This document shows, one piece after another, positions 12,795-63,042 of a stretch of DNA of 64,000 bases (position 1 is its first letter; the number at the start of each line of letters is the position of its first letter). This DNA comes from Candidatus Aldehydirespirator sp. (GTDB taxonomy: Bacteria; Actinomycetota; Acidimicrobiia; Acidimicrobiales; Aldehydirespiratoraceae): positions 628,590-692,589 of the forward strand of contig OZ242033.1 in the NCBI GenBank assembly GCA_965205155.1. Reading direction: 5' to 3'. Under the pieces are notes generated by a model. It saw only the letters and a program-made list of their open reading frames with translations, made no database searches and was not told where the DNA came from. A program made the translations under genes and the position numbers.

Positions 12795-13198
12795 GCGGCG
12801 GCGAGGCGCTCGGCTTCGTCGATGTAGTCGACGGTCTCGTGGATGAGCATCTTGATGTCGGCTGGCTCGCAGAGGCCCAGGTAGAAGCAGTCGCCGTGCA
12901 GCACGTCCCGGGCGGTGTGGTAGTGATCGGTCAGCCGGCCGACGCCGTCATCGGCGCGCGCCAAGCGCCGTAGTTCTTGCGTGGTGATGGGGGACTTGGC
13001 GGGCTCCTCGCCGGTGCGGGTCAAGATGAGGGCGTCGGCGGCGCGCTTGGTGGCGCACCAGGCCTTCTCGGCGGCGTCGCGGATGTCGCCGGCCTCCAGC
13101 CGGGCCAGCGCCGCGTCGTGCAGGGCCCGGGCGTCGGCGAAGAGCGCGGCGCGATCTGTCGCCATGTCGGCTGGGGGCTGCCGCCCCGTACGGCTCAT
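12791..13198 (-). CDS. PaREP1/HEPN-like helical protein, paralogue 1
   Basis: Start at 13198 (MSRTGRQPPAD…) chosen because of the ATGA overlap with paralogue 2 and the N-terminal alignment to it. AEKAWCATKRAADALI…LHGDCFYLG resembles the PaREP1 family by eye. Confidence 0.6.
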   Translation of the reverse strand: MSRTGRQPPADMATDRAALFADARALHDAALARLEAGDIRDAAEKAWCATKRAADALILTRTGEEPAKSPITTQELRRLARADDGVGRLTDHYHTARDVLHGDCFYLGLCEPADIKMLIHETVDYIDEAERLAAA

Positions 13199-13632
13199 TG
13201 CTGGACAGCGAGGCGCTCGGCTTCGCGGATGTAGTCGACGGTTTCGTGGATGAGGCGCTCGATGTGTTCGGCCGGCTCGCAGAATCCGAGGTAGAAGCAG
13301 TCGCCGTGCAGCGCGTCCTTGACGATGTGGTACCGATCCGCTAGGCGCCGGATGTCCTGGTTGGCGATGGCGAGACGGTTCAGTTCCCGTGTCGTGTGAG
13401 GGGACTTTGCGGGCTCGTTGCCGGTGCGGGCCAGGATGAGGCCGTCGGCGGCCCGCTTGGTGGCGCACCAGGCCTTCTCGGCGGCGTCGCGGATGTCGCC
13501 GGCTTCCAGGCGGGCCAACGCGGCGTCGTGCAGGGCTCGGGCGTCCGCGAACAGCGCGGTGGTCCGCTCGGCAACGGAGTCACTGGCGGGCGGCCGGCTG
13601 CTGGACGTATCGCTCGTACCAGTTGTTGTCAT
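13195..13632 (-). CDS. PaREP1/HEPN-like helical protein, paralogue 2
   Basis: Start MTTTGTSD at 13632, preceded by GGGAGGCACACG. Roughly 75% identical by eye to paralogue 1. Confidence 0.6.
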   Translation of the reverse strand: MTTTGTSDTSSSRPPASDSVAERTTALFADARALHDAALARLEAGDIRDAAEKAWCATKRAADGLILARTGNEPAKSPHTTRELNRLAIANQDIRRLADRYHIVKDALHGDCFYLGFCEPAEHIERLIHETVDYIREAERLAVQQ

Positions 13633-19035: not shown

Positions 19036-20268
19036 ATGAAGCGACGCACGATTATCTGGTTCGCAGCCGTGATGGCGGTGTTCGGGCTGGTCGCCTCGTC
19101 CTGCGGCGACGATGACGACGCTGACGACGGTGCTGCCGCAGTGACCGAGGCCGCCCCCGAGCCGGCCGACGAGGCGCCTACGGCCGCTGAGGAAGAGGAA
19201 ATGGCCGAAGAGGAGCCGATGGCCGAAGAGGAGCCGATGGCTGAAGAGGAGCCGATGGCCGAGGAAGAGCCGATGGCTGAAGAGGAGCCTGAAGCCGATC
19301 CGATGGACTACAACGGCGACGGCGTGGTGCGCATCGGCGTGGCCGTGCCCGGGGACGCCAACGACGGCGCGTACTACCAGGCCTCCGTGGACGGGGCCAG
19401 GGAGTTCGCCGCAGCCAACGGCTATCCCGAGCCGCTCTATATCGACAAGATCGACCAGGCCGAGGCGGCCACCGAGTTGCGCAACCTGGCCGATCAGGGG
19501 CTGGACATCATCGTCATCGCGGCCGGCGAGATCTCGGAGCCTCTGCCCGACCTGACCGAGGAGTATCCGGAGATCTTCTGGTACTGCCGGTGCGAGGACA
19601 CCTTCCCCGACCTGCCCGGACTGGCCCAGTCGTCCGACAACAGCGCGGCCATCGAGTACATTGCCGGCTTCGCGGCCGGGCTGCTGCTGCAGGAGCGGGG
19701 CGGCGAGAGCGTCTACATGCTCGGCGCCCACGGGGCCGCATTCGAAGTCGAGACGGAGCTCTCGTTCCGGATGGGTCTGAAGGCGGTGGACGAGGCCTAC
19801 GAGATTCACTACGTGCCCACCGGCGCCCACCCCTTCGACTTCGACAATGTGGCCGGAGCGTCCGAGGCCTTCCACAACGCGGTGGCCGCGGGCGCGGACG
19901 CCATCTACCCGTACCTGGGCGGTGCCCACAACCCGGTGATCGCCCTGGCCAACGAGGAGGGCCTCCTCACCATGAGCGCGGGCGCCTCGGACGTGTGCAC
20001 CCGTGAGGGCGACCTCCAATGGGATCTCGCCATCAAGTTCGACGGCGGCGACTACATCAGGGCAGTGTTCCCGCTGATCCAGCAGGGCCGGTTGCAGGAG
20101 GGTGAGCGGTTCATATTCACCGTCGAGCCCGGCTCGGTGGCCGGCGCCGAGATCTGCGATCCCACCCCTGAGCAGGCCGAGCGCATGGAGGCCGAGATCG
20201 AGAAGGTCGGCACGGGTGTCTTCGAGGACCAGTTCAACGAGATCAGGGCCATCGCCTACGGCGGCTGA
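19036..20268 (+). CDS. BMP-family ABC transporter substrate-binding lipoprotein
   Basis: Signal peptide with a lipobox-like LVASSC, an acidic repeat linker, then a BMP/PnrA-like domain (VRIGVAVPGDANDGAYYQ…). Confidence 0.8.
   Translation: MKRRTIIWFAAVMAVFGLVASSCGDDDDADDGAAAVTEAAPEPADEAPTAAEEEEMAEEEPMAEEEPMAEEEPMAEEEPMAEEEPEADPMDYNGDGVVRIGVAVPGDANDGAYYQASVDGAREFAAANGYPEPLYIDKIDQAEAATELRNLADQGLDIIVIAAGEISEPLPDLTEEYPEIFWYCRCEDTFPDLPGLAQSSDNSAAIEYIAGFAAGLLLQERGGESVYMLGAHGAAFEVETELSFRMGLKAVDEAYEIHYVPTGAHPFDFDNVAGASEAFHNAVAAGADAIYPYLGGAHNPVIALANEEGLLTMSAGASDVCTREGDLQWDLAIKFDGGDYIRAVFPLIQQGRLQEGERFIFTVEPGSVAGAEICDPTPEQAERMEAEIEKVGTGVFEDQFNEIRAIAYGG
19189..19293 (+). repeat. 18-bp tandem repeat (about 5.5 copies) encoding (EEEPMA)n inside the lipoprotein linker
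   Basis: GAAGAGGAGCCGATGGCC units are visible directly. The translation reads EEEEMAEEEPMAEEEPMAEEEPMAEEEPMAEEEPEA. Confidence 0.9.
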
Positions 20269-23063: not shown

Positions 23064-23999
23064 GTGGAAGCCCTCTTCAGCGCGCTGGCCGACGTCTTCG
23101 GCACCGACGTCACCTATTCGAGCGCGGCCCGCTTCGCCGTACTGCTGGCCTTCTGCGCTCTGGGCGAGACCATCGCGGAGCGGGCCGGCACGCTGAACAT
23201 CTCCACCGAGGCCATGATCCTGGCCGGGGCGTTCGCGGCCGCGGTCGGGTTCGACATGACCGACCGGGTCACCATCGGGTTGATGTTCGCGATGGCCGCC
23301 GGGCTGGTGGTCGCCATCGTCCACGCCAACCTGAGCCACCGGCTCACGGCCAACACGTTCGTGGTGGGGCTGACCCTCAACATCCTGGTCCTGGGCCTGG
23401 CCACCTTCTTGAACCGGAACCTCGAGCCTCACTCGAAGCGGGCCCATGTGTTCGAGGTTCCGATCCTGTCGGATATCCCGCTCGTGGGCCCGGCCCTTTT
23501 CGGGCAGTCGTGGCCCTTCTATCTCATCTACCCGCTGATCCCGCTGTCGTTCTGGCTGCTGTACCGCACCCGCTGGGGGCTGGAGGTGCGAGCCGTGGGC
23601 GAGAACCCGCAGGCCGCCGACGTGTCGGGCATCGACGTCAACAAGCGCCGGCGCCAGGGTGTCTACCTGAGCGGGATCACCAGCGGGCTGGGCGGCGGCT
23701 ACCTCCTGCTGGGTCAGGTGGGACTGTTCGAGGAGCAGATTGTGGGCGGCCGGGGATTCATCGCCATCGCGGCGTTGATCTTCGGCGGCTGGACGCTGCG
23801 GGGCGCGGTGGCCGGCTGCCTGCTGTTCGGCGCGGTGGACTCGTTCAGGCTCAGCCTGCCCACGGTCGGCTACGAGGTGACCGCGGAGGTGCTGCAGGCA
23901 CTGCCGTTCGTGGTCACCATCGCGACGGTGGCCGTGTTCGCCCACCGGACCCGCCAGCCGGCCGCTCTGGCCCAACCATTCGTACGGGGTCTGACCTAG
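23064..23999 (+). CDS. ABC transporter permease
   Basis: Multi-TM ORF with a GTG start 3 nt after the previous stop. Confidence 0.85.
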   Translation: MEALFSALADVFGTDVTYSSAARFAVLLAFCALGETIAERAGTLNISTEAMILAGAFAAAVGFDMTDRVTIGLMFAMAAGLVVAIVHANLSHRLTANTFVVGLTLNILVLGLATFLNRNLEPHSKRAHVFEVPILSDIPLVGPALFGQSWPFYLIYPLIPLSFWLLYRTRWGLEVRAVGENPQAADVSGIDVNKRRRQGVYLSGITSGLGGGYLLLGQVGLFEEQIVGGRGFIAIAALIFGGWTLRGAVAGCLLFGAVDSFRLSLPTVGYEVTAEVLQALPFVVTIATVAVFAHRTRQPAALAQPFVRGLT

Positions 24000-24014
24000 A
24001 GCGAGCGTGAATTG

Positions 24015-24140
24015 ACCATGAGCGTCTCGCGTCGCAGCAGTGTCACTCCCGCTCTTGTTCGCTGCGCTCACGGGCCGCTCGGGCCGCGGCCTCGCCCGTA
24101 TGGGCCGGATACGCCCGCCCATTCGCTCGGCCTCTTGGCA
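24015..24140 (+). repeat. intergenic repeat element, copy 1 (core …CGCAGCAGTGTCACTCCCGCTCTTGTTCGCTGCGCTCACGGGCCGCTCGGGCC…)
   Basis: Near-identical core found again at 51820-51962 (same orientation) and at 59190-59300 and 62962-63016 (inverted). Boundaries are approximate. Confidence 0.75.
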
Positions 24141-35657: not shown

Positions 35658-45288
<9,631 letters not shown>

Positions 45289-46226: not shown

Positions 46227-48002
46227 CTATCGGCCGGGCCGGTTCGTGGACCTGACTTGAACCGTGACGATGTCGAGTCCGTGGAATCTCTGGTGGTGCA
46301 CCGACGATGCGTAGTGGCGCAGCAGCCGCAGAGATATTTCGCCGCCCTCTAGGCCCTCGGCACCCTGCGCCTCCTCGTTGAGGTAGGCCAGCCGGTCCTC
46401 AAGGTTCTCGTCGTCAAACACGGCCAGGAACTCCAACTCCACCACTGACCCGCTGGGACGCGCCTCTACGATCAGGCGGGGAGCGTGGTCTGCGACCTGC
46501 CCGTCACCCGGCTGATCGTGACTCCGCAGCAGGCTGATCAGCGTCTCCTCGGCGGCCGCGTTCAGCCGTTGCACCGAGACGTCGTTCCAGCCCGCGGCGG
46601 CTGCCACTCTCTGGAGGAACTGCCGGATCTGGGGCAGCGAGGCGAGGTCCAGATCCACTTCGAGCCGTCCCCGCCCTCGCGGGCTGGTCAGGTTGAGGAA
46701 CAGGGTCATCACCACAGCGGCGATCGTGCCGGCCAGCAGGCCGTTGTCGAGCAGCTTTCCCCAAGCTCCCCCCAGCGCGTCGGCGATGATGGTCTGCTGG
46801 TCGAGGCCCGCCCCGATCGCGAACGCCATTCCCGCAATCAGCGCCTTGTGGCGGTCGAGTCCGTCCTGCACCACTGTTCGGACCCCTCCGACGAAGATCA
46901 GGGCGATCGCGGTGAGCACGTAGGCCCCCATCACCGGGCTGGGGATGGTGAGCAGGACGGCCGTCACCTTGGGGAGGAACGCCAGCGCCAGCAGGGTCGC
47001 GCCGATGACGTACCCGGCACGCCGGGATGCGACGCCGGTGAGGCTTGTGAGCGACACACTGGTCGCCGAGTAGACGGTGGTGGGCGGTGCTCCCGCGAGG
47101 CCGGAGAGCAGGATGCCGAGGCCGTTGGTGTTCAGGGATCCCTGCACGACGCGGAAGTCGGTGGCCCGAGGCCTGCGCAGGCTGGCCTGCTGTACGGCCA
47201 CGCAGTCGCCCATGTTCTTGATGCCGCCCACCAGTGTGACCACCACAAAGACGGGCAGCAGTGTCCAGAAGCCGACGCCGGGGGTCAGGTCGATCCCGGG
47301 GAGGCCGGCGCCGGGAATTCCGGCCCAGGGCGCTTCGGTTACCGGCCCTGCGTCGTAGGCGCCGAGAGGGACCGCCGCCGCGCAGCCCGCAGCTATGCCG
47401 ACCACTGGCGACCAGAGCCGCCAAGGGCCGGAAGCCCGCAGCGCCATCGCCACTGTCACGGCCAGGGAGACGAGGGTGATCGCCGGACCGGCGGCATCGG
47501 CCGCGCCCTCGGGTATCTCTCGGACCCGGTCGTAGGCGACGGGCAGGATCGTCACCGCGATCAGCATGAGGACCGTGCCCGACACCACCGGAGTGATGAC
47601 CCTGCGGAGCAGCGGCAGCCACAGCGCCAGAGCTACGTAGAAGAGCGCCGCAGCCACGGTCAGGCTGGCCAGCAGCGGCGGTCCGCCCTCATTCAAGGCC
47701 AGGACCGAGATGGCTACGAAGTTGGGAGTTGTGCCCATGATCAGGATGTGGCCTGCGCCGAACCTCCAGAACCGGGTGGCCTGGAGAGCCGTCAGGGCGC
47801 CCGAGATGATCAACGCAGCAAAGACGGCCCACTCGAGATAGCTCTGATCCTGGCCGCCCGCCCGGGCGGTGACCGCCACAATCAGCACCAGTGGTGCCAG
47901 TCCGAGAACGGCGCCCTGAAGGCCCACCGCCACCGACACCGGCGCGGGGCAGGGCTCGTCCGGCTCGTAACGGATGGACTGGTTGGCTTCCGGTGATGTC
48001 AT
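46227..48002 (-). CDS. NCS2-family (xanthine/uracil-type) permease with a ~145-aa C-terminal cytoplasmic domain, paralogue 1
   Basis: Multi-TM protein with an NCS2-like segment (PPTTVYSATSVSLTSLTGVASRR). The C-terminal soluble domain is not typical of the family. Confidence 0.75.
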   Translation of the reverse strand: MTSPEANQSIRYEPDEPCPAPVSVAVGLQGAVLGLAPLVLIVAVTARAGGQDQSYLEWAVFAALIISGALTALQATRFWRFGAGHILIMGTTPNFVAISVLALNEGGPPLLASLTVAAALFYVALALWLPLLRRVITPVVSGTVLMLIAVTILPVAYDRVREIPEGAADAAGPAITLVSLAVTVAMALRASGPWRLWSPVVGIAAGCAAAVPLGAYDAGPVTEAPWAGIPGAGLPGIDLTPGVGFWTLLPVFVVVTLVGGIKNMGDCVAVQQASLRRPRATDFRVVQGSLNTNGLGILLSGLAGAPPTTVYSATSVSLTSLTGVASRRAGYVIGATLLALAFLPKVTAVLLTIPSPVMGAYVLTAIALIFVGGVRTVVQDGLDRHKALIAGMAFAIGAGLDQQTIIADALGGAWGKLLDNGLLAGTIAAVVMTLFLNLTSPRGRGRLEVDLDLASLPQIRQFLQRVAAAAGWNDVSVQRLNAAAEETLISLLRSHDQPGDGQVADHAPRLIVEARPSGSVVELEFLAVFDDENLEDRLAYLNEEAQGAEGLEGGEISLRLLRHYASSVHHQRFHGLDIVTVQVRSTNRPGR

Positions 48003-48078: not shown

Positions 48079-49839
48079 TTAGCCGGAGGCCTTGACCTGG
48101 ACCGTGACGATGTCCAGTCCGTGGAACTTCTGGTGGTGGACCGAGGACGCGTAGTGCCGCAGCAGGCGGAGCGATATCTCTCCCTCGCCGAGTCCGCCCG
48201 CGCCCTCGGCTTCCTCGCTCAAGTACGCCAGCCGATCCTCCAGGTTCTCGTCGTCGAACACGGCCATGAACTCCAGTTCAACCATCGAGCCCCCGGGTCG
48301 CGCTCCGATGATCAAGCGGGGCGCCTCACCGGACTTGCCGCGATCGACCCGGTCCTCACTGCCCTGCAGCAGGCTCATCAGCGTCTCCTCGGCCGCCGCG
48401 TCCAGGCGTTGCGCCGAGGCGTCGTTCCAACCCGCGGCGGATGCCACCCTCCGGAGGAACTCTTGGATCTCGGGGAGCGAGGCCGGGTCCAGCTCGACAT
48501 CCAGCCGCCCACGTCGGTGGCCGCTGGTGAGGTTCAGGAACACGGTCATCACCACCGCGACGATCGCGCCGGCCAGCAGGCCGTTGTCGAGCAGCTTGCC
48601 CCAGGTGCCCCCGAAGACGTCGGTGACGATGGTCTGCTGGTCGAGGCCCGCGCCGATCGCGAACGCCATTCCGGCCACCAGCGCCTTCTGGCGGTCGAGC
48701 CCGTCCTGCACGACCGTCCGGACCCCGCCCACGAAGATCAGCGCAAGGGTGACGAGCACGTAGGCACCCATCACTGGTTTGGGGATGGTGAGCAGGACGG
48801 CCGTGACCTTGGGGAGGAAGGCCAGCGCCAGCAGCGTGGACCCGACGGCGTACCCGACGCGGCGGGACGCGACCCCGGTGAGGCTGGCCAGCGACACGCT
48901 GGTCGCCGAGTAGACGGTGGTGGGCGGCGTCCCGGCGAGGCCGGCGAGCAGGATGCCGAGCCCGTTGGTGTTCAGCGATCCCTGAACGACCCGGAAATCG
49001 GTCACCCGCGGCCGGCGGCGGCTGGCCTGCTGCACGGCTACGCAGTCGCCCAGGTTCTTTATGCCGCTCACCAGGGTTACCACCACGAAGGCGGGCAGGA
49101 GCGTCCAGAAGTCGACGCCGGGACTCAGGTCGATCCCGGGGAAGCCGGCGCCGGGGAGTCCTGCCCAGGGCGCGTCGGCTACCGGCCCCGCGTCGTAGGC
49201 GCCGAGCGGGATCGCGACGATGCAGCCGGCGGCGACTCCGATCACCGGTGACCACAATCGCCACCGTCCCGAGGCTCGCAGCGCCATGGCGGCCGTCACC
49301 GCCAGCGTCACCAGCATGAGCAAGGGCCCGGCCCCATCGGCGGCTCCGTCGGGCACCTCCCGTACGCGGTCGAAGGTGACGGGCAGGATGGTGACGCCGA
49401 GCAGCATGAGGACCGTGCCCGAGACCACCGGTGTCAGGACTTTGCGGATCCGCGGCAGCCACAGCGCCAGCGCGACGTAGAAGAGCGACGCCGCGACGGT
49501 CAGGCTGGCCAGCAGCGGGGGCCCGCCTTCGGTGAGGGCCAGGACCGAGATGGCCACGAAGTTGGGGGTGGTGCCCATGATCAGGATGTGGCCGGCGCCG
49601 AACCGCCAGAACCGGGTGGCCTGGAGCGCGGTCAGGCAACCCGAGATGATCAGGGCCGCGAAGACCGCCCACTCCAGGTAGCTCTGGTCCTGCCCGCCCG
49701 CCACGCCGGTGATGACCACGAAGAGCACCAGCGGTGCCAGCCCGAGGACGGCGCCCTGAAGTCCCACGACGACCGACACCGGCACGGGGCAGATCTCGTC
49801 GGGCTCGTACCGGATGGCCTGTTCGGCGGGTGACGTCAT
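48079..49839 (-). CDS. NCS2-family permease with C-terminal cytoplasmic domain, paralogue 2
   Basis: Roughly 80% identical to paralogue 1 by eye over the full length. Confidence 0.75.
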   Translation of the reverse strand: MTSPAEQAIRYEPDEICPVPVSVVVGLQGAVLGLAPLVLFVVITGVAGGQDQSYLEWAVFAALIISGCLTALQATRFWRFGAGHILIMGTTPNFVAISVLALTEGGPPLLASLTVAASLFYVALALWLPRIRKVLTPVVSGTVLMLLGVTILPVTFDRVREVPDGAADGAGPLLMLVTLAVTAAMALRASGRWRLWSPVIGVAAGCIVAIPLGAYDAGPVADAPWAGLPGAGFPGIDLSPGVDFWTLLPAFVVVTLVSGIKNLGDCVAVQQASRRRPRVTDFRVVQGSLNTNGLGILLAGLAGTPPTTVYSATSVSLASLTGVASRRVGYAVGSTLLALAFLPKVTAVLLTIPKPVMGAYVLVTLALIFVGGVRTVVQDGLDRQKALVAGMAFAIGAGLDQQTIVTDVFGGTWGKLLDNGLLAGAIVAVVMTVFLNLTSGHRRGRLDVELDPASLPEIQEFLRRVASAAGWNDASAQRLDAAAEETLMSLLQGSEDRVDRGKSGEAPRLIIGARPGGSMVELEFMAVFDDENLEDRLAYLSEEAEGAGGLGEGEISLRLLRHYASSVHHQKFHGLDIVTVQVKASG

Positions 49840-49939: not shown

Positions 49940-50182
49940 ATGGCCACCATCCAGATCAAGCATGTGCCCGAGGACGTCCATCGCAAGCTCAGGATCCGGG
50001 CCGCCGCCGCCGGCCAATCGTTGCAGCAGTACATGCTCGACGCGATCTGTCGACAGGCGGACCTCGCCAGTGCCGAGGAGATACTCGCTCGAAAGCGGGT
50101 CGAGGCTCTCACTTACGGTGAGACGCACCTGGACCCGAGCGTCGTCGTGGAGGTCATCCGGGCCGATCGCGAGTCTCATTGA
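49940..50182 (+). CDS. vapB: ribbon-helix-helix antitoxin (VapB/FitA-like)
   Basis: MATIQIKHVPEDVHRKLRIRAAAAGQSLQQYM is a typical RHH antitoxin N-terminus. 4-nt overlap with the PIN gene. Confidence 0.8.
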   Translation: MATIQIKHVPEDVHRKLRIRAAAAGQSLQQYMLDAICRQADLASAEEILARKRVEALTYGETHLDPSVVVEVIRADRESH

Positions 50183-50574
50183 TCGTCGTCGACGCCAGCG
50201 TGGCCACGGAGGCGGTGGCTGGATCGAGCGAGCGCAATCTGAGAGCGCTGAGCCGTATCACTGGTGAGGCCGCACTGGCGCCGCATGTCCTTGACCTCGA
50301 GGTGGCTTCGGCGCTCAGGGGGCTCGTACGGCGTGGGGAGCTTGCGGAGCCGATCGCTCGCAGCGGGCTGCGGCATCTGGCGGTGCTGCCGATCGCTCGC
50401 GTCCCTCATGAGCCGCTTCTGGAGCGGTGCTGGGAACTGCGCGACAACCTCACCGTGTACGACGCGGCCTATGTGGCCCTCGCCGAGGCGACCGGTGCCA
50501 CGTTGTTGACCTCCGACCAGCGACTGGCACAGGCGCCCGGCATCCGCTGCAAGGTCGAACTGCTGGAGCCGTGA
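50179..50574 (+). CDS. vapC: PIN-domain toxin (VapC)
   Basis: TTG start overlapping the antitoxin stop. IVVDASV…, YDAAYVALAE, LLTSDQRL acidic PIN pattern. Confidence 0.85.
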   Translation: MIVVDASVATEAVAGSSERNLRALSRITGEAALAPHVLDLEVASALRGLVRRGELAEPIARSGLRHLAVLPIARVPHEPLLERCWELRDNLTVYDAAYVALAEATGATLLTSDQRLAQAPGIRCKVELLEP

Positions 50575-50635
50575 ACAGCTCTGGGCTCCGGTGCGGGCTT
50601 GGACTCGCTTCGGGGGGCTCCGGTAGGGTCGCGGT

Positions 50636-51814
50636 GTGATCGCGGACCTGGAGCACGAGCCGGTGGTGGAGCGTCTGCGGCGCGCCGTGGGCGAGACGGG
50701 CGGGCTGGTCGACGCCCCGCTCGACAGCCCGATGCTGCAGCCCTACGAGGTCTACGACCAGGACCTGTTCGACCTCGAGATGGTGCGGGTCTACGCCCGG
50801 TCCTGGGTGTGGCTGGGCGACACCGAGGACCTCGTCGAGCCCGGCGACTTCATAACCGGGACCATCGGCTACCAGCCGGTGATGGTCGTCCGCCAGGAGG
50901 ACGGCTCGGTCCGGGGATTCCTCAACAACTGCCGCCACCGGGCCTCGGGGCTCCTGTACGAGCCGGCCGGCAACTGCGGCAAGACCATGACCTGCCCCTA
51001 CCACAACTGGGCCTACAACATCGACGGGCGCCTGATCGGCATCCCCGACCGGGCCCGCATGTACCCCGACGACCTTCCCGACGAGAACTACGGGCTGGTG
51101 CCGATACGGATCGAGGTGGCCTGGGACAAGCTCGTCTTCGGCTGCCTGTCCCGCAGGGCGCCAACGTTCCGGGAGTGGATCGCGCCGCTGGCCCAGCGTT
51201 ACGACCTCTACCGGTTCGGCAACTTCACCCGCTACTACCGGGAGCTGGACGAGACCTATCCCATCAACTGGAAGGCCTTCGCGGAGAACTCCAACGACGA
51301 CTACCACGTTCGCTTCGTGCACCGGCGCCTCAACCGCTTCCGCAAGCAGATGGACACCATCGTGCGCTTCGAGGGCCGCACCTGCAGCGGCTTCAAACCC
51401 CACTCCGAGGCCGAGGACGCCACCGGCGGGCGCACCGACCTCACCGATGAGCAGCTCCTCGGCCACTACGCCGACTTCATCTACCCGAACCTCACGCCGC
51501 TGCCCTACCCGACGCAGCTGATCCTGGTGCGGGCCGACCCCATCGCCTGTGACCGCACCCGGCTGTTCAGCCGCATCTACGGCGTCGACAAGTCGGCGGA
51601 GGAGCAGGACTTCGAGCTGGACCGTCTGGCCACCACCAACCTCGAGGACACCAACATGGTGACCGAGCTGATGAAGAACCTGCGCTCGCCCTTCTACCGG
51701 GTCGGGCCGGCCTCGACCTGGGAGGGCCGGGCCGCCCATGTGATGAAGCTGGTGCGGGCCGACGTGGCCACCCCGCTGGCCGACGACGAGTTCGACGGTC
51801 CGGTCGACGGCTGA
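50636..51814 (+). CDS. Rieske (2Fe-2S) / non-haem-iron oxygenase alpha subunit
   Basis: CRHRAS…CPYHNW and ENSNDDYHVRFVH. GTG start. Confidence 0.85.
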   Translation: MIADLEHEPVVERLRRAVGETGGLVDAPLDSPMLQPYEVYDQDLFDLEMVRVYARSWVWLGDTEDLVEPGDFITGTIGYQPVMVVRQEDGSVRGFLNNCRHRASGLLYEPAGNCGKTMTCPYHNWAYNIDGRLIGIPDRARMYPDDLPDENYGLVPIRIEVAWDKLVFGCLSRRAPTFREWIAPLAQRYDLYRFGNFTRYYRELDETYPINWKAFAENSNDDYHVRFVHRRLNRFRKQMDTIVRFEGRTCSGFKPHSEAEDATGGRTDLTDEQLLGHYADFIYPNLTPLPYPTQLILVRADPIACDRTRLFSRIYGVDKSAEEQDFELDRLATTNLEDTNMVTELMKNLRSPFYRVGPASTWEGRAAHVMKLVRADVATPLADDEFDGPVDG

Positions 51815-51819
51815 CAGCG

Positions 51820-51962
51820 AGCGCGGATAGGTAATGAGTCCCTCGCGTCGCAGCGGTGTCACTCCCGCTCTTGTTCGCTGCGCTCACGGGCCGCCCGGGC
51901 CACGGCCTCGCTCAGGGCCTCGCTGGATGCCCATCAGCCGCGGACCATCCGCTCGGCCTCTG
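51820..51962 (+). repeat. intergenic repeat element, copy 2
   Basis: …CTCGCGTCGCAGCGGTGTCACTCCCGCTCTTGTTCGCTGCGCTCACGGGCCGCCCGGGCC… aligns with copy 1, including the distal …CCGCTCGGCCTCTGGC end. Confidence 0.75.
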
Positions 51963-51970
51963 GCTCCCCG

Positions 51971-52762
51971 ATGACTAGCCCGACCCCGATGGCCTCCGCA
52001 GTGGCGGCCGGCAAGCTGCGCCGGGCCCGGCATCTGTTGGGCGCCGACGGCAGGGCCGTGTTCGTGGCCATGGACCATCCCGCCTACATGGGCGCGGGAG
52101 TCGGCCCGGCCGCGGCCGGCGCCATCGCCTCGGCCCGACCCGACGCCATCCTGGCCACCTGGCAGCTGGCCCGGTCCCGCCCCGAGGCCTTCGCCACCTC
52201 GGGCCTGATACTCAGGGTGGACGGCGGGATCTCCGATTTGGGCGAGCCCCCCGCCTCCGACACCACATCGCTGCTGTACTCGGCCGAGCAGGCGCTGGTG
52301 CTCGGAGCCGACGCGGTGGTGATCATGGTGTTCCCCGGCACGCCCGACGAGGAGCGCTCGCTGGGGCGGCTGGCCCGCCTCGCGGCCGAGTGCGAGCAGC
52401 TCGGCCTGCCCGTCATGGCCGAGTCGATCCCGGGCGGTTGGCCCCGGGCGGTCGAATGGAATGCCGAGAACGTCGGTCGGGGAGCCCGGATCGCGGTCGA
52501 GCTCGGAGCCGACATCGTCAAGACGGTCTGTCCCGGCCCCGCCGAGGAGTTCGCCGCGGTGGCCGAGGCCTGCCCTGCACCGGTGGTCGCGCTGGGCGGC
52601 CCCAAGGTCGACGACGAGGACCAGGTCGTGGCGCTGGCCCGCGGCGTGGTCACCGCCGGAGGCGCGGGCGTGGCCTTCGGCCGCAACGTCTGGGGCTCCG
52701 ACGACCCGGCTGCACTGGTGGGACGCCTGATGGAAGCCGTTCACGGTGCGGGGACGGGCTGA
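51971..52762 (+). CDS. class I aldolase family protein (DhnA/LsrF/DeoC-like)
   Basis: Pattern ILRVDGGIS…GADAVVIMVFPG…MAESIPGG…ELGADIVKT, typical of DhnA-type aldolases. Confidence 0.7.
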   Translation: MTSPTPMASAVAAGKLRRARHLLGADGRAVFVAMDHPAYMGAGVGPAAAGAIASARPDAILATWQLARSRPEAFATSGLILRVDGGISDLGEPPASDTTSLLYSAEQALVLGADAVVIMVFPGTPDEERSLGRLARLAAECEQLGLPVMAESIPGGWPRAVEWNAENVGRGARIAVELGADIVKTVCPGPAEEFAAVAEACPAPVVALGGPKVDDEDQVVALARGVVTAGGAGVAFGRNVWGSDDPAALVGRLMEAVHGAGTG

Positions 52763-53334
52763 TGGGCGCGCCCCCGGCGTCGGCGCTCGATGACCGCCTG
52801 TACCAGCGCCTAACCGATCTCGTATCGGCCGACTCGGCCGACTCGCCCGACCGGGGTCCCGGCCACACCGATCTGCGTCCCGCGGTGGAGCAGGCCCTCT
52901 ACCACGAGGCCCGGCTGCTGGACGACCGCGACTACCGGGGGTGGCTGGAGCGGTTCACCGACGACTGCGTCTACTGGGTCCCCCTCGATCCGGTCACCGA
53001 TCCCCGCACGAGAGTCTCCTACTTCCTCGATGACCGCCGCCGCATGGCCGACCGCATCGGACTGCTGGAGACCGGATGGGCCCACGCCCAGGAGCCGCCG
53101 TCGAGGACCTCCCGCACCGTGTCGAACGTGGAGGCCTGGCCCACCGGTGACGGCGACACTCTGGCCCGCTGCTCGACGGTGGTGTGGGAGCACCGCAAGG
53201 ACCGGCTGACCCCGTTCGCGAGTCGCAACGACTATGTGCTGGCCTCGCTGGGAGACGGCTGGGCCATCAGGTACAAGATCGTTCGCCTCGTGGACCGCGC
53301 CGGCGATGTCCGCAAGTTCTCGTTCGTGCTATAG
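52762..53334 (+). CDS. aromatic-ring-hydroxylating dioxygenase beta subunit (NTF2/SnoaL-like)
   Basis: Start at 52762 overlaps the aldolase stop. EQALYHEARLLDDRDYRGWLERFTDDCVYWVP is a typical beta-subunit signature. Confidence 0.8.
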   Translation: MGAPPASALDDRLYQRLTDLVSADSADSPDRGPGHTDLRPAVEQALYHEARLLDDRDYRGWLERFTDDCVYWVPLDPVTDPRTRVSYFLDDRRRMADRIGLLETGWAHAQEPPSRTSRTVSNVEAWPTGDGDTLARCSTVVWEHRKDRLTPFASRNDYVLASLGDGWAIRYKIVRLVDRAGDVRKFSFVL

Positions 53335-53351
53335 GTGGGTCACGTGAAGCC

Positions 53352-54665
53352 ATGAACGATCTCGACGCTCTGATCCAGCCCCACCGGGTCCATCGCTCGC
53401 TCTACACCGACAGCGACATCTTCGTCACCGAGATGGAGAGGATCTTCGGGGGCGCCTGGGTCTATCTCGCCCACGAGAGCCAGCTGCCCGAACCGAACGA
53501 CTTCATCACGGCCCGGATGGGCCTGCGCCCCCTGATCCTCACCCGCGACTCCGACGGCGGGCTGCACGGGCTGTTCAACCGCTGCGCCCACCGGGCTTCG
53601 ACCGTCTGCCAGTCCGAGTGCGGGTCGGCGCGGCGCTTCCAGTGCTCCTACCACGGGTGGACCTACTCGAACCGGGGCGAGCTGGTCAACGTGCCCTTCG
53701 TCGAGGGCTACCCGCCGGAGTTCGACAAGTCCGACCACGGCCTGGCCCTCCTGCCGCGCCTGGGCACCTACCGCGGCCTGATCTTCGGCACGCTCAACCT
53801 CGACGCGCCCACCCTGGCCGAGTGGCTCGGCCCGGCCGGCCCGCTGATCGACGAGTTCGTGGACCGCTCGCCGGCGGGACGCATAGAGGTGCGCAACTGC
53901 CAGCGGATGATCTATCGCGGCAACTGGAAGCTGGCCTGGGACAACGCCGGCGACGGGCTGCACCCCACTTTCGCCCATCGCAGCTTCCTGGTGCTCAACG
54001 AGCGCCAGCACGGGGGCGCCCGCTCGCTGTCGCAGTTCAAGGCCAGCCCCGACGACACCGGCATGTACGGCCTCGACCTGGGCCACGGCCACATGTTCGT
54101 GGACCAGCGTCCCGGCCTGCAGCAGTCCTTCTGGGAGACGCAGCGGCCGGTGCCGGGACGGGAGTGGTATGCGGACCGCATCTCGGAACGCTTCGGTGAC
54201 GACGCGTCCGGCGTGCTGGAGATGGCGCCGGGCTCGATGGTGAACCTCTCGATCTTCCCGAACCTGCTCATCAAGGGCAACACCCTCGAGACGGTGGACC
54301 CGGTGAGCGTGGGCGAGACCCGGCTGCACACCTGGGTCGCGGCCGCGGAGGGAGCGCCCGACGAGGTGAACGTCCTGCGCATGCGGATCGCCGAGGACTT
54401 CCCCAGCCTCGGCAACCCTGACGACCTGGAGATATTCGAGCGCTGCCAGGAGGGTCTGGCCATACCGGAGGTGGAGTGGGTGGACATGAGCAAGGGGCTC
54501 GGGCACGGGGCCGAGGAGGTGACCGCCGACGGGGTGAGGCGGGCGCCGGTCACCCACGAGGGCCCGATGCGGGGCTACCTGCGGGCGTGGCTGGAGTTGA
54601 TGTCGGCCGACGCGAAGCTAACCACGGCCCGGGCCGGCGAGGCCAGCTTCGAGAAGGCCGCATGA
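53352..54665 (+). CDS. Rieske oxygenase alpha subunit (partner of the preceding beta subunit)
   Basis: Start MNDLDALIQPHR at 53352. CAHRAS…CSYHGW and DNAGDGLHPTFAH. Confidence 0.85.
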   Translation: MNDLDALIQPHRVHRSLYTDSDIFVTEMERIFGGAWVYLAHESQLPEPNDFITARMGLRPLILTRDSDGGLHGLFNRCAHRASTVCQSECGSARRFQCSYHGWTYSNRGELVNVPFVEGYPPEFDKSDHGLALLPRLGTYRGLIFGTLNLDAPTLAEWLGPAGPLIDEFVDRSPAGRIEVRNCQRMIYRGNWKLAWDNAGDGLHPTFAHRSFLVLNERQHGGARSLSQFKASPDDTGMYGLDLGHGHMFVDQRPGLQQSFWETQRPVPGREWYADRISERFGDDASGVLEMAPGSMVNLSIFPNLLIKGNTLETVDPVSVGETRLHTWVAAAEGAPDEVNVLRMRIAEDFPSLGNPDDLEIFERCQEGLAIPEVEWVDMSKGLGHGAEEVTADGVRRAPVTHEGPMRGYLRAWLELMSADAKLTTARAGEASFEKAA

Positions 54666-55297
54666 CGCCTCTCGGGCGGGTCCTGCAGGAGGTGGTCGTG
54701 CCCCGCTGCGAGGGCCGGGCGGTCGAGGTGCGGGCCGGGCAGGTGCTCAGGATCGTGGCGCTGGACGGCCCGCAGGTGGCCGACTCGACGTTCCTGGCTC
54801 TCGACAACCCCCGCGAGGGCTATCACGCCGGCCAGACGGTGGCCCTCAACATGCTGGCCGGGACGGGGACCATGCGGCGGATCACCACGCTGTGGTCGCG
54901 CCCGCCCTACGAGCGGCCCATGCTGACCGTGATCGACGACCCGGTCGGCGTTCACTTCGCCTGGAACGGCGGCCGCTGCTCGGCGGGCGTCTACTCCGTC
55001 CGCGACGGCATCGAATCGGGTCACCGGACCTGCCAGGGCAACCTGGAGGAGGCCGTCAGGCCCTGGGGCGTGGACCCGGACCTGATACCGGACGTGTTCA
55101 ACGTGTTCATGTACACCGATGTGGAGGACGAGCGGCGTCTGGTGTTCCGGGAGTCGCCCGCGGCTGCTGGCGACTACATCGACCTGCGAGCCGAGATCGA
55201 CGTGCTGGCCGCAGTGTCGGCCTGCCCCAGCGAGACGTCCGCGTCCAATGGCGGCGAGCCGAAGCGCCTGGGGCTGGAAGTTCGGGAAGGGGAATAG
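54662..55297 (+). CDS. DUF1989-family (urea-carboxylase-associated-like) protein
   Basis: ATGA overlap with the alpha subunit. VVPRCEGRAVEVRAGQVLRIVALDGPQVAD…SACP pattern. Confidence 0.7.
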   Translation: MTPLGRVLQEVVVPRCEGRAVEVRAGQVLRIVALDGPQVADSTFLALDNPREGYHAGQTVALNMLAGTGTMRRITTLWSRPPYERPMLTVIDDPVGVHFAWNGGRCSAGVYSVRDGIESGHRTCQGNLEEAVRPWGVDPDLIPDVFNVFMYTDVEDERRLVFRESPAAAGDYIDLRAEIDVLAAVSACPSETSASNGGEPKRLGLEVREGE

Positions 55298-55302
55298 CTG
55301 CG

Positions 55303-55608
55303 ATGGTGAGGATGGTGCGGAAGGCCCAGGTCGATTCCAGCGACGGGGCCAGGGTGAGGCAGTGGATCGAGCGCTACACCGGCTACATGGCCGCGGCCGA
55401 TCCCGAGCAGGTGACGGTGACCTCCTGGATGGAGGCCTACGGCGCCTACGGCAAGGTGTACTGGATGATCGACGCGCCGAGCCTGGCCGTGCTCGACGAG
55501 TTCCTGGAGCGCCTTCCTACCGAGGAGGGATACCGGGAGATCCTCAAGGCCGGCAGCGAGCTGTTCGTTTCCGGCCAGACCAGCGACCTGCTGCTGAAAG
55601 AGGTCTGA
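55303..55608 (+). CDS. hypothetical small protein (101 aa)
   Basis: ORF in operon context. No family recognised. Confidence 0.45.
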   Translation: MVRMVRKAQVDSSDGARVRQWIERYTGYMAAADPEQVTVTSWMEAYGAYGKVYWMIDAPSLAVLDEFLERLPTEEGYREILKAGSELFVSGQTSDLLLKEV

Positions 55609-55612
55609 ACCC

Positions 55613-56821
55613 TTGGCCCGCCGGCCCGGCGCGTCGCCGCGCCGGGGTGCTGATCGCGACCTGCTGCCCTTCCAGTTGCTGATGGGCGTGACCGCCGGCG
55701 GCATCGGCGGGATCGTCACCGTCCTCGGCGAACTGCGCGACGAGTTGGGCTTCAGCGGGTCGGGAATCGGCATCATGGTGGCCAGCGGCTTCGTGGCCGC
55801 CTTCCTGTCGCAGGTGACTCTGGCCCGGCTGGCCGATGTGGGCCACTCCCGGGTGATGGCAACCCTCGGCATCGCGCTAAGCGCAGTCGCCATGCTGATG
55901 ATGGTCTTCGCCGTCGACCTGGAGTTGTGGATACTGAGCCGGGCTGCGCTGGGATTCGCCGGGGGGCTCATCCTGCCCGGCGTGCGCCGGGCCGCCTCGG
56001 TCCACGACCCGGTCCGGGCCGGGGAGAACCTCGGCCGCATGGTGGTGGCCGAGACCACGGGGTTCATCTTCGGTCCCTCCTTGACCGCTCTGCTGGTGTG
56101 GCTGGGAGGGATCCGCCTGCCCTTCGCCGTGTTCGCGGCGGCCATGCTGCTTTTCCTGCCGGTGGCCGTGCGCCTGCCTCCCGACCGCGGCCTCCTCGAC
56201 AGCTCGGGACGGGCGACGTCGTTCGACCTCCTGCGGGGGCGGCGCCTGCAGGGAGCGCTGATCATCGTCGGCGGCTACTTCATGATGGTCGGCGCCTGGG
56301 AGTCGGTGCTGCCGGTGATGTTCGCCGACCGGGGCGCCGGCGCTGCTCTGACCGGCATCGCCTTCACGATGGTCGCGCTGCCGATCATGCTGGTGGGCAC
56401 CCGGGCGGGGCGGCTGGCCGACCGGGTGGGACCGGTGCGGGTGACGATGGCCGGGCTCGTCGCGGTGAGCGTGAGCACGATGACCTTCGGTTTCATCCCC
56501 GGTGTGATCCCGATAGCGGGGGTGATGACGCTGGTGGGCTTCGCGGACGGCTACGGGTTCACCGCGGCTCACGCGGTGGTGGCTCGAGCCGTGCCCGAGC
56601 GACGCCAGGCGGCCGCCCTGGGCCTGATGGGCGCGTCCGAGGTGGCGGGGGCCGCCATCTCCGCGCTCCCCGCCGCTTGGATGTACGAGAGTTCCGGGTC
56701 CGGGCCGACCTGGGCCGCGGTCGGCCTGGCCGTGCTGGTGCTGGTAGTGGCGGGCTGGCTGCGCATCAGGGGCACGGTGCCGGTCTCGGGACCGGACGCG
56801 CCGCAACCGCGGCCGGATTGA
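55613..56821 (+). CDS. MFS transporter
   Basis: About 12 predicted TM segments. The TTG start is tentative. Confidence 0.75.
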   Translation: MARRPGASPRRGADRDLLPFQLLMGVTAGGIGGIVTVLGELRDELGFSGSGIGIMVASGFVAAFLSQVTLARLADVGHSRVMATLGIALSAVAMLMMVFAVDLELWILSRAALGFAGGLILPGVRRAASVHDPVRAGENLGRMVVAETTGFIFGPSLTALLVWLGGIRLPFAVFAAAMLLFLPVAVRLPPDRGLLDSSGRATSFDLLRGRRLQGALIIVGGYFMMVGAWESVLPVMFADRGAGAALTGIAFTMVALPIMLVGTRAGRLADRVGPVRVTMAGLVAVSVSTMTFGFIPGVIPIAGVMTLVGFADGYGFTAAHAVVARAVPERRQAAALGLMGASEVAGAAISALPAAWMYESSGSGPTWAAVGLAVLVLVVAGWLRIRGTVPVSGPDAPQPRPD

Positions 56822-56881
56822 TCCCGGTGCCGGCGGGTCGCTTCTGGACGCGGCCGGAGACTTCACTAAGGTTCTGCCTCG

Positions 56882-59188
56882 ATGTACTCGTCGCTGGCTC
56901 GATGGTGTTTCCGCCATCCGTGGCGTGGTGTCGTCGTCTGGCTCGTCATCCTCTTCCTGACGCTGGGCGCTTCGCAGAATCTGGGGGAGGCCTACAGCGG
57001 GGACCTGGCCATCGCAGGCACTGAGAGCCACGACGGGAACGCCATTCTCCAGCGTCACTTCTCAGGGGCCGGTGCGGGCCCCGCGGGAACGATCGTGTTC
57101 CGGGCCGACCAAGGTGTCGACGACCCGGTCGTGCGATCGGCCATGGGCGAGCTCTTCGCTCGGGTGAGGGCCCTCGAGGACACCGGCGTCATCACCCCCT
57201 ACGACCCGTTGGTCGGCCCGCTGCGCATCGCGCCCGATGGCCCCGACGCGGGCCGGATCGCCTACGCCGACGTGAGCCTCCCACCCGGCACCAGCGGCAC
57301 CGAGGCCCAAGACATGGGCCGGACCATCGAGGGTCTGATCGAGGAGTTGGACCTGAACTCCATCGAGGGCCTGGAAGTGGAGGTCGGCGGGATCTGGTTC
57401 GCCGAGTTGCGGCCGCCCGAGTCAGAGGCGATCGGCCTCGCATTCGCCATCTTCGTGCTGATCGCAGTGCTGGGTTCGGTGATGGCCATGGGGGCCACCG
57501 TGGCTGCGGCTCTGGTGACCGTCGGGATCGGCGCGGCTTTCATCATCGTCTTCAGCAACTTCATGACGGTGCCGGACTTCGCGCCGGCCATCGGCCTCAT
57601 GATCGGGCTGGGAGTCGGCATTGACTACGCCCTGTTCATCATCACCCGCTACCGGGACGCTCTGAGCGAGGGCCTCGGACGTGAGCAGGCCCTGGTGGTG
57701 GCCCTCGACTCTGCGGGCCGGTCTGTCATATTCGCGGGAGCGACGGTTGTCGTGTCGCTGCTGGGAATGCTGTTCATCGGGATCCCGTTCGTGACCGGCT
57801 TCGGTGTGGCCGCCGCGGCCACGGTGGCGGTCGTCATGATCGGCTCGGTGACGTTGCTGCCGTCGCTCATCGCGCTGCTCGGTGACCGGATCACCACCAC
57901 ACGGGTACGAGGCATCGTCGCCGCGGTGCTGTTCAGCGTGGCCCTCTTCGGCTTCGGGGCCGGCATCGAACCACTGGCGGCCGGAGCCGTGCCTGTTGCT
58001 GTGATCGTGCTGGTGGCCGGACTGTTCGGACGGGACCGCAACCCGCTGCGGCGAAGGCTGCGGCCGCGCCGGGAGCGGCCGCTGCGAGAGACCGGCTGGT
58101 ACCGGCTCAGCCGGGCGGTGCAAGCCCGACCATGGGCGTTCGCGGTCGGCGGCACCCTGCTCCTGCTTCTGCTGGCTGCTCCGGTGCTCGTGCTGCGGTT
58201 CGGCTTCGCCGATGAGAGCAACTACGGCCCCGAGACCACCACTCGCCAGGCCTACGAACTTCTCGTCGACGGCTTCGGGGCGGGCGCCAACGGTCCGCTG
58301 GTGGTGGTTACCGAAGTGTCGGAAACCTCTCAGATGGCCGAACTCAACCGCCTGGCACAGGCCATGGCGGCTACCGACGGCGTCAGCTTCGTCAGCCCGC
58401 CCATCCCCAACAGCCCGATAGCGCCCACGGCTGCCGCCATCGAGGTGCGACCGACCACCGGACCTCAAGCGGCCGAGACCGAGGCCCTCGTCAAGCACCT
58501 TCGCAGCTCAGTCATTCCCGCGGCGATCGCTGGGACCGACCTCGAGCCTCAGATCACCGGCCTGGTCGCGGTGAAGACTGATGTCAGCGACTTCTTGAAA
58601 TCGCGCACCGCGGTGTTCTTCGTGGCGGTGCTCGGCGCCTCCTTCCTGCTGCTGATGGCAGTGTTCCGCTCGCTGGTTGTGCCGATCAAGGCCGTCATCA
58701 TGAACATGCTCTCGATCGGTGCGGCCTACGGCGTGCTGGTGGCCGTGTTCCAGTGGGGCTGGCTCGGCAGCGTCGTGGGGATCGAGCCGGGCCCGATCGA
58801 GCCGTTCATGCCGATGATGCTGTTCGCGGTGCTGTTCGGGCTGTCGATGGACTACGAGGTCTTCCTGTTGTCGCGCATGAAGGAGGAGTTCGAGCGCACC
58901 GGCGACGCAGTCAACTCCGTTGCCGACGGCCTGGCCGCCACCGCCCGCGTCATCACGGCCGCCGCGCTCATCATGGTCTTCGTGTTCGGGAGCTTCGTGT
59001 TCGAGGACCAGCGGGCCATCAAGATGTTCGGCATCGGCCTGGCCGCCGCCGTCGCCGCCGACGCCAGCCTGGTGCGAATGCTGATCGTGCCCTCCACCAT
59101 GGAACTGCTCGGCGCCCGCAACTGGTGGCTGCCGGGCTGGCTCGACCGGATCCTGCCCAACCTCAACGTGGAGGGCAGCCGCCGCTAG
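56882..59188 (+). CDS. MMPL-family (RND superfamily) membrane transporter
   Basis: 768 aa with a duplicated 6-TM architecture and GIDYALFI / SMDYEVFL motifs. Confidence 0.9.
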   Translation: MYSSLARWCFRHPWRGVVVWLVILFLTLGASQNLGEAYSGDLAIAGTESHDGNAILQRHFSGAGAGPAGTIVFRADQGVDDPVVRSAMGELFARVRALEDTGVITPYDPLVGPLRIAPDGPDAGRIAYADVSLPPGTSGTEAQDMGRTIEGLIEELDLNSIEGLEVEVGGIWFAELRPPESEAIGLAFAIFVLIAVLGSVMAMGATVAAALVTVGIGAAFIIVFSNFMTVPDFAPAIGLMIGLGVGIDYALFIITRYRDALSEGLGREQALVVALDSAGRSVIFAGATVVVSLLGMLFIGIPFVTGFGVAAAATVAVVMIGSVTLLPSLIALLGDRITTTRVRGIVAAVLFSVALFGFGAGIEPLAAGAVPVAVIVLVAGLFGRDRNPLRRRLRPRRERPLRETGWYRLSRAVQARPWAFAVGGTLLLLLLAAPVLVLRFGFADESNYGPETTTRQAYELLVDGFGAGANGPLVVVTEVSETSQMAELNRLAQAMAATDGVSFVSPPIPNSPIAPTAAAIEVRPTTGPQAAETEALVKHLRSSVIPAAIAGTDLEPQITGLVAVKTDVSDFLKSRTAVFFVAVLGASFLLLMAVFRSLVVPIKAVIMNMLSIGAAYGVLVAVFQWGWLGSVVGIEPGPIEPFMPMMLFAVLFGLSMDYEVFLLSRMKEEFERTGDAVNSVADGLAATARVITAAALIMVFVFGSFVFEDQRAIKMFGIGLAAAVAADASLVRMLIVPSTMELLGARNWWLPGWLDRILPNLNVEGSRR

Positions 59189-59189
59189 A

Positions 59190-59300
59190 GGTCGAGCGAG
59201 CAGGTGAGCGAATCCGGCTCATACGGGCGAGGCCGTGGCCCGAGCGGCCCGTGAGCGCAGCGAACAAGAGCGGGAGACACACCGCCGCATCGCGACGGGC
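59190..59300 (-). repeat. intergenic repeat element, copy 3 (inverted relative to copies 1-2)
   Basis: …GGCCCGAGCGGCCCGTGAGCGCAGCGAACAAGAGCGGGAGACAC… is the reverse complement of the copy 1/2 core. It begins right after the MMPL stop. Confidence 0.75.
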
Positions 59301-59335
59301 TTGTCCCTACCAGCGCACGTTCTCAGCGAGTGCCG

Positions 59336-60439: not shown

Positions 60440-60496
60440 CGCGGCTGCCTCACCCGCTGATTCTCGCGCGAGCCCCGGCGCGTATGCTCGGTCGCG

Positions 60497-61912: not shown

Positions 61913-61948
61913 CCTGTTACCGGCCTCTATCCGTGAACTAGGAGCATC

Positions 61949-62986: not shown

Positions 62987-63016
62987 GCGCAGCGAACAAG
63001 AGCGGGAGACACCACA
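62962..63016 (-). repeat. intergenic repeat element, copy 4 (half-copy, inverted), overlapping the 3-prime end of the ADH gene
   Basis: GGCCCGAGCGGCCCGTGAGCGCAGCGAACAAGAGCGGGAGACAC is identical to the copy 3 core. The ADH stop (TGA 62984-62986) lies inside it. Confidence 0.7.
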
Positions 63017-63042
63017 ACCTGACTGGCAGGAGGACGGTCCCG

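Follow-up and report, generated by a model that had tools for sequence, protein, structure and literature searches.

The window, by which we mean the whole stretch of 64,000 nucleotides analysed here, contains four related sequences at the places where an earlier note had reported them, and their ends were placed by reading them against the family consensus. Copy 1 (23999-24134, plus strand), which also figures in the orthologous-site comparison below, is full length with a right arm of the 40-nt form, and consists of a left arm (23999-24047), a core (24048-24095) and the right arm (24096-24134). Its 48-nt core reads CCCGCTCTTGTTCGCTGCGCTCACGGGCCGCTCGGGCCGCGGCCTCGC, and the first 38 nt of this core form a unit that is also found solitary and in tandem arrays. 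The copy is preceded by the TAG (23997-23999) of a BPD_transp_2 permease gene, and the next ORF starts with an ATG at 24161. Copy 2 (51815-51960, plus strand; core at 51864-51911) is likewise full length, with an alternative right arm of 52 nt, and lies between the TGA (51812-51814) of a Rieske oxygenase alpha-subunit gene upstream and a DeoC-family aldolase gene (51971-52762) downstream. Copy 3 (59188-59322, minus strand; core at 59227-59274), also full length, shares one base of its right end (GAGG... on the plus strand) with the TAG (59186-59188) of an MMPL gene, while its left end is 13 nt from the stop codon (59336-59338) of a convergent acetamidase/formamidase-like gene; nearly all of the 147-nt spacer between these two genes is occupied by the copy. 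Copy 4 (62964-63012, minus strand) is core-only, comprising the 38-nt unit (62969-63006) and a few flanking element bases. The ORF of a Zn-alcohol dehydrogenase (ADH; 61949-62986) enters this core by ~20 nt, and the last 6 or 7 ADH codons together with the TGA (62984-62986) are repeat sequence. The copy is followed by a GGAGGA ribosome-binding site and then by the GTG of the next ORF.

The neighbouring genes had been read as encoding an ABC permease, a Rieske oxygenase, an MMPL protein and an ADH, and these identities were confirmed by Pfam matches (BPD_transp_2 permease, Rieske/Ring_hydroxyl_A, MMPL and Zn-ADH, respectively). The earlier note placed all four copies immediately after stop codons, which holds for copies 1-3, where the stop triplet abuts the element end or overlaps it by 1 base, and not for copy 4, which contains the ADH stop. 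A repeat search of the window recovered copies 1 and 2 as a direct pair (24000-24095 vs. 51816-51911; 88% identical, 96 nt), copies 1 and 3 as an inverted pair (24027-24135 vs. 59187-59295; 86% over 109 nt) and copies 3 and 4 as a pair of 96% identity (59232-59280 vs. 62964-63012). The inverted ends described before are real, with GAGCGAGCG... on the left and ...CGCTCGGCCTC on the right, as is the internal CGCAGC/GCTGCG repeat of copies 1 and 2. We also agree that no transposase gene is found nearby.

The window has further features of its own. On the minus strand, a 1052-aa ORF (59336-62494) shows a family match (FmdA_AmdA) only in its last ~140 residues and overlaps the ADH gene on the other strand; it is largely spurious. 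ORF calls around this region are inflated by the high G+C content and the stop-poor repeat. At 19186-19293, five or six units of an 18-nt tandem repeat, GCCGAAGAGGAGCCGATG, look like a coding Glu/Pro-rich peptide repeat. Three direct-repeat pairs with 75-84% identity (46248-46825 vs. 48088-48665, 1840 nt apart; 12801-13149 vs. 13208-13559, 410 nt apart; and 37066-37416 vs. 44905-45261, ~7840 nt apart) are probably tandem or nearby paralogous genes.

Copy Number and Modular Build

The host genome (G000; 3.89 Mb, 68.8% G+C, two contigs) was searched by blastn with copies 1 and 2, as the earlier note had proposed, which yielded 579 matches that merged into 269 loci. An iterated nhmmer search found 289 copies, and the family amounts to ~290 copies at ~230 loci, far above chance, so that the high copy number anticipated from four copies in the window was borne out. 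When the 48-nt core alone was used, ~300 genomic matches were obtained, nearly all of them 94-100% identical; ~190 of these covered the full 48 nt and ~64 ended at position 38.

The anatomy of the element was derived from the layout of 60 full-length copies and an alignment of 42. The left arm, ~50 nt in length and beginning with GAGCGAGCGCGG(G/A)TAGG, is the most variable part of the element. It is followed by the core, CCCGCTCTTGTTCGCTGCGCTCACGGGCCGCTCGGGCC, and then by the junction ACGGCCTCGC. The 38-nt core unit, CCCGCTCYTGTTCGCTKCGCTCACGGGCCGCTCGGGCC, is almost invariant. The right arm occurs in at least three forms, of ~12, 40 or 52 nt, and has an almost invariant terminus, CCGCTCGGCCTC. 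The left end, AGAGCGAGCGCGGGTAGG, and the reverse complement of the right end, AGAGGCCGAGCGGGTAGG, constitute terminal inverted repeats. When the two arms were set against each other in register, 82% of cells paired, as compared with 36-48% in slid registers, so the arms are imperfect inverted repeats.

An element has 1 to 11 core units in tandem, with linkers of 5-9 nt between them. Arrays of 2-11 units have periods of 43-47 nt, as represented by 11 units with a period of 47 nt at C1:383076-383590 and 6 units with a period of 45 nt at C1:3376878-3377140. The element is non-coding and measures 28-160 nt, or more where it carries a core array. A mini-element of 28 nt at C1:2788606 consists of the two ends only, with TAG on both flanks. 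Many copies are devoid of the left arm, and where copies are truncated, the break coincides with a module border instead of a random point.

Beyond these copies, CCGCTCGGCCTC followed by T also terminates core-less sequences at C1:455611-455945 and at ~100 other places, including solo ends between convergent stop codons and one array with a 66-nt period. Several repeat families seem to share this end.

State of the Insertion Sites in Related Species

The flanks of 24 full-length copies were joined, and the joined sequences were searched in three related genomes. In the sister species G008, where flank identity was 75-93% for matches spanning the junction, 14 of the 24 joins matched straight across it, 3 were filled, with an interruption of ~140 nt, and 2 were rearranged. 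The species set against each other in the empty-site comparisons have flanks that diverge by 7-20%. Of 19 scorable sites, 14 were empty in G008, and the absence of the element was confirmed in the fetched site sequences. The site of copy 1 is empty in G008, G009 and G022. G024 carries at this site, immediately behind that same TAG, an element of opposite orientation that has two cores, and this is an independent insertion. At the site of copy 3, no element is present in G008 and G011. These data show that the element has been gained or lost between species, that it occurs in either orientation, and that one site can be taken twice independently. The earlier description of a MITE-like dispersed element is thus upheld by the inverted ends and by presence and absence at orthologous sites.

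Among 81 copies with well-anchored ends, the junction consensus was C-T-N-A before the element, GAG...CTC at its two ends and T-N-(G/A)-G after it. Target-site duplications, which the earlier note had suggested looking for, were seen in the cleanest empty-site comparisons, with TGA...TGA at two sites and TAG...TAG at two others; in most copies, the two flanking triplets differ. The middle base of the flanking triplet was the same in 15 of 36 copies (9.3 expected), and the best k-mer tests for triplet duplication over the genome gave z ~3.5, so that duplication is only weakly detectable.

Longer direct repeats, 7-22 nt in size and taking in the first bases of the left arm, were found in 3-5% of copies (3 of 93 among those of full length). 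Duplications of at least 8 nt occurred in 10% of copies as compared with 2.6% in controls, with about half derived from tandem arrays; arrays aside, about ten copies have duplications of 7-22 nt. Duplications of such length are outside what a fixed-stagger (DDE) cut predicts. At C1:3129733-3129901, C1:1060521-1060690 and C1:61628-61760, the right flank repeats 10-22 nt including the left-arm start. Within C1:1671502-1671606, the right flank repeats, at 1671596, 10 nt of target that lie directly before a core lacking the left arm. We also considered the left arm as a duplicated pre-existing target, and rejected this for the bulk of the family, as 90 of 93 copies showed no above-chance similarity between left arm and right flank.

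One possible explanation for the longer duplications is that the family is a retro-mobile, SINE-like repeat, the RNA of which is copied by a reverse transcriptase recognising the right end, giving left truncations and variable target duplications. The nearly invariant right end, the highly variable left end, the many copies without a left arm and the excess of duplications of at least 8 nt are in line with this. However, 90 of the 93 full-length copies have no long duplication, the truncations respect module borders, and both the inverted ends and the ends-only mini-element speak against it. Furthermore, of the 26 genomes examined in the genus only 7 contain the reverse-transcriptase domain RVT_1, which is missing from many repeat-rich ones. 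We therefore regard a retro-mobile origin as barely credible.

A bias of orientation with respect to the replichores, as expected for single-strand transposition, was sought and not seen in G000. Orientation in this genome is skewed with respect to the chromosome strand, with 42 minus and 12 plus copies between convergent genes. The skew is strongest at C1:2.0-3.0 Mb, where four of five 200-kb bins gave 0:11, 3:8, 0:2 and 6:21, and it does not change sign at the GC-skew extremes.

Association with Gene Ends and In-Frame Insertions

The position of the element relative to genes was assessed with a gene set of crude GC3-based ORF calls, covering 83% of the genome. A stop codon was present within -25 to +15 nt of an edge at 127 of 230 loci (55%), as compared with 14.6 ± 3.5 (6%) under random non-coding placement. 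Elements are commoner than expected between convergent genes and rarer between divergent genes, and relative to the adjacent gene they are found in either orientation. Copies pile up at gene 3' ends because T-N-A/TAG triplets are mostly stop codons in a genome of 69% G+C. The simplest reading of the gene-end excess is, accordingly, a preference for T-N-A/TAG combined with tolerance of insertion at that position.

Where elements seem to overlap ORFs, this is in most cases an artefact of start-codon extension, and real in-frame insertions within genes were found at about 3 of the ~230 loci. In nuoG (C1:1052278-1052381), an entire element of the short-right-arm form lies in frame between the Fe-S and the molybdopterin-like parts and adds 37 aa, AERARPWPERPVSAANKSGNDTAAARQARTYPRSFSG; this insert is absent in G007, G008 and G011. 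The in-frame insert in gltB (C1:3015797-3015878) is common to G008 and absent in G005 and G011, while G011 shares, and G008 lacks, the one in a membrane-protein gene (C1:2137123-2137236). The whole consensus has one strand and frame without stops, encoding ...ARPWPERPVSAANKSG....

Tests for a Structured RNA or Terminator

The earlier note had offered a structured RNA or terminator module as an alternative to a mobile element. Such a module would act through a hairpin formed between the arms at operon 3' ends, which would stop transcription or block 3' exonucleases. Roles of this kind have been proposed for BOX, REP and SPRITE, and such side effects have been suggested in the literature for other MITEs (PMC3049150). 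The location of copies at gene 3' ends is compatible with this idea, as are the 82% complementarity of the arms, which would give a long stem in the transcript, and an alternation of GC and AU pairs at columns 18/136 and 19/135.

In the Rfam scan, the window gave no match at the gathering score, and the element matched no family; around copy 1, the search at E <= 10 returned just a chance match to an L31 leader (E = 7). The RNAalifold consensus was weak (-16.3 kcal/mol), with a covariation term of only -0.15, and on neither strand did the consensus fold better than shuffled sequences (z = -0.5 and -1.7). Arms of the same copy were barely more complementary than arms of different copies (8.0 vs. 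7.6, and 7.4 vs. 7.0). Compensatory evolution of the arms was examined as a separate candidate and found to be marginal, with 82.1% of cells pairing as compared with 80.9% in shuffles. The GC/AU alternation is confined to the two arm positions given above and can be a single subfamily split. In the internal CGCAGC/GCTGCG repeat, 82% of cells pair, with no compensatory change.

A terminator scan of positions 50000-64000 found no site with a hairpin and T-run inside copies 2-4, and the element sequence of copies 1-4 contains no T-run. Copies also lie between divergent genes and inside ORFs, core-only copies have no arms to pair, and the two orientations relative to genes again argue against a terminator. 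The evidence says that the element is not a structured RNA, and we consider a terminator or 3'-end hairpin to be a very improbable account of the family.

Search for a Mobilising Enzyme

The label REP, which had also been applied to the element, did not survive the search for its usual partner. No Y1_Tnp (PF01797)/RAYT gene was detected in the 26 genomes of the genus, while control genomes did match, and the element contains no REP-type palindrome. In G000, no gene with DDE_Tnp_1, DDE_Tnp_1_2 or DDE_3 was found. Among PF01609, PF13586, PF13358, PF01797 and PF01548, none is distributed across the genus like the repeat. IS5/IS4, IS630 and IS110 transposases and reverse transcriptase were each considered as the partner and rejected, as they showed no co-distribution with the repeat in the genus. 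The ends of the element were not found in the IS copies sampled from relatives.

The sole RVT_1 match in G000 (C1:2163323-2163895) lies in an open frame of 639 aa, and similar reverse-transcriptase frames of 685-688 aa are present in G002 and G011. The sole match to an IS110-family transposase in G000 is located at C1:3738206-3738664. A 3-kb segment between outward-facing ends (C1:1500334-1503354) was inspected as a candidate "autonomous" element and discarded, as it carries ordinary genes (SCP2-like, SulP and fatty-acid desaturase).

Distribution across Taxa and Conservation of the Core

The core-bearing records belong to sponge-associated Acidimicrobiia and are MAGs with titles such as Ca. 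Aldehydirespirator and Ca. Poriferisodalis, and an exact 37-nt core is found in MAGs of these two named taxa, which NCBI assigns to different families. Within the genus, 22 of 24 other species have 120-490 first-look candidates each, with one species having none and two having few. In a sample of the order, 12 of 301 genomes matched, representing 7 of 185 genera and 6 GTDB families. In the five other GTDB families, the core is 94-100% identical and the arms are mostly not alignable, although the build can be recognised as the same and the end, ...CGGCCTC, is similar. Core arrays with periods of 57-67 nt were noticed in genomes of other families (G264, G152 and G089).

The alignment of 42 copies shows no variation in the core columns, as against a mean identity of 60-80% in the arms. 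A centre far better conserved than the ends is atypical of a passive MITE, and raises the alternative that the element is a cis-acting module selected by the host. Here the core would be a putative binding or recognition site for a conserved protein or ribonucleoprotein, which could belong to the host or to the machinery that really mobilises the element. The inverted arms would be of secondary importance, and the element would be kept at gene ends for a role there such as 3'-end protection, processing or nucleoid organisation. Apart from the invariance of the core, this alternative would accommodate the commonness of core-only copies and arrays, the near identity of the core in genomes of five further GTDB families in which no other part of the element aligns, its exact 37-nt form in MAGs of different NCBI families, and the lack of a transposase distributed like the repeat. 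On the other hand, the element lies in both orientations relative to the adjacent gene, most of its sites are empty in the sister species, so that individual copies are dispensable, and three species of the genus are without the family or nearly so. Horizontal spread among symbionts sharing a habitat, or gene conversion biased to the centre, could moreover mimic such conservation without any function. On balance, we consider a host-selected module unlikely.

Discussion

We think it likely that the four sequences in the window belong to a modular transposable repeat that is non-autonomous, namely a MITE whose build is like that of the pneumococcal BOX element. The family is undescribed; we found no description of it in the literature, and no paper was found on repeats of these taxa. 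According to the model that we favour, a transposase of the DDE type would act in trans on the inverted ends to insert the element, with duplication of 2-3 bp (possibly up to 5 bp) of a TA/TNA target in the manner of IS5-family (IS1031/IS427) or IS630-type enzymes. Slippage or unequal recombination may alter the count of core units, and most effects on neighbouring genes would be incidental. The element is a family of a familiar kind, unusual mainly by its almost invariant centre of 38-48 nt.

BOX has a boxA-boxB(n)-boxC build with a variable number of boxB units, and ISSpn2 has been proposed as an IS with matching ends (PMC3049150). The likeness to BOX of S. pneumoniae and S. suis is one of architecture only, no kinship in sequence being expected, with end modules of the inverted-repeat type around an internal module present in 0 to n units. 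Both families also have hundreds of intergenic copies without a transposase of their own and occasionally modify coding sequences, and S. suis BOX shares the use of alternative end modules. In contrast to BOX, the present family resides in a high-G+C actinobacterial host, its copies lie exactly on stop codons, its internal module is the best conserved part and is common to several families, and no IS with matching ends was found.

Elements of the IS5 family (IS1031/IS427) have GAG ends, use TNA or CTAG/TA targets and make short target duplications, and enzymes of the IS630 type also come into consideration. The present family resembles MITEs of the IS5 and IS630 types in its small size, GAG...CTC inverted ends, T-N-A/TAG junctions, high copy number and polymorphic insertion, and in the short duplications of its cleanest sites. 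It differs from them in that no such gene is present in G000 or co-distributed in the genus, the ends are less conserved than the centre, and duplication is not demonstrable in most copies. A precedent for mobilisation of this kind is RUP, which is mobilised by IS630-Spn1 of the IS630 family (PMC3049150).

Similarities to other repeats are partial. With REP/BIME of Proteobacteria, the family has in common a mosaic build, a high copy number, an extragenic location at gene 3' ends, both orientations and sometimes arrays; however, it has no palindrome of 20-40 nt with a conserved 5' tetranucleotide, its units are longer and its core is non-palindromic. The Rickettsia palindromic elements, reportedly described by Ogata et al. 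in 2000, are said to enter genes for conserved proteins in frame and to leave them intact. The in-frame copies in nuoG (+37 aa), gltB and the membrane-protein gene, and the stop-free strand and frame of the consensus, are reminiscent of these elements, whereas the overwhelmingly intergenic location of the present family, with so few intragenic loci, and its unrelated lineage and sequence set it apart. MIRU, reportedly described by Supply et al. in 1997, are said to be mycobacterial tandem units of 40-60 nt at tens of loci, without inverted arms. The actinobacterial host and the tandem units in spacers between co-directional genes, touching stop and start codons, are similar, but arrays here are one of the forms taken by an element that is bounded by TIRs and occupies hundreds of loci.

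We tentatively entertain, as a minority view, that the 38-48-nt core is the functional heart of the element, a putative site for a conserved machinery such as a chromosomally encoded, domesticated recombinase or nuclease in a RAYT-like role, or a DNA- or RNA-binding protein of the host. A recognition site of this kind would explain why the core is 94-100% identical across six families despite divergence of the arms, why core-only units and arrays persist, and why no classical transposase tracks the repeat. The duplications of 7-22 nt would then reflect a chemistry other than a fixed-stagger DDE cut.

In practical terms, the repeat affects the automatic annotation of genomes of uncultured symbionts, in that it leads to ORFs being falsely extended, provides stop codons as well as C-terminal residues, and adds peptides to conserved enzymes; gene calls improve when the family is known. 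Its presence or absence at given sites is a fine-scale marker of strain and species history in sponge-associated Acidimicrobiia. The family is abundant and recently mobile without a recognisable transposase, which poses the question of what moves the repeat and what reads its core. An ordinary MITE that spreads horizontally would be one more family in a long list, whereas a new enzyme family, if true, would be of wider interest.
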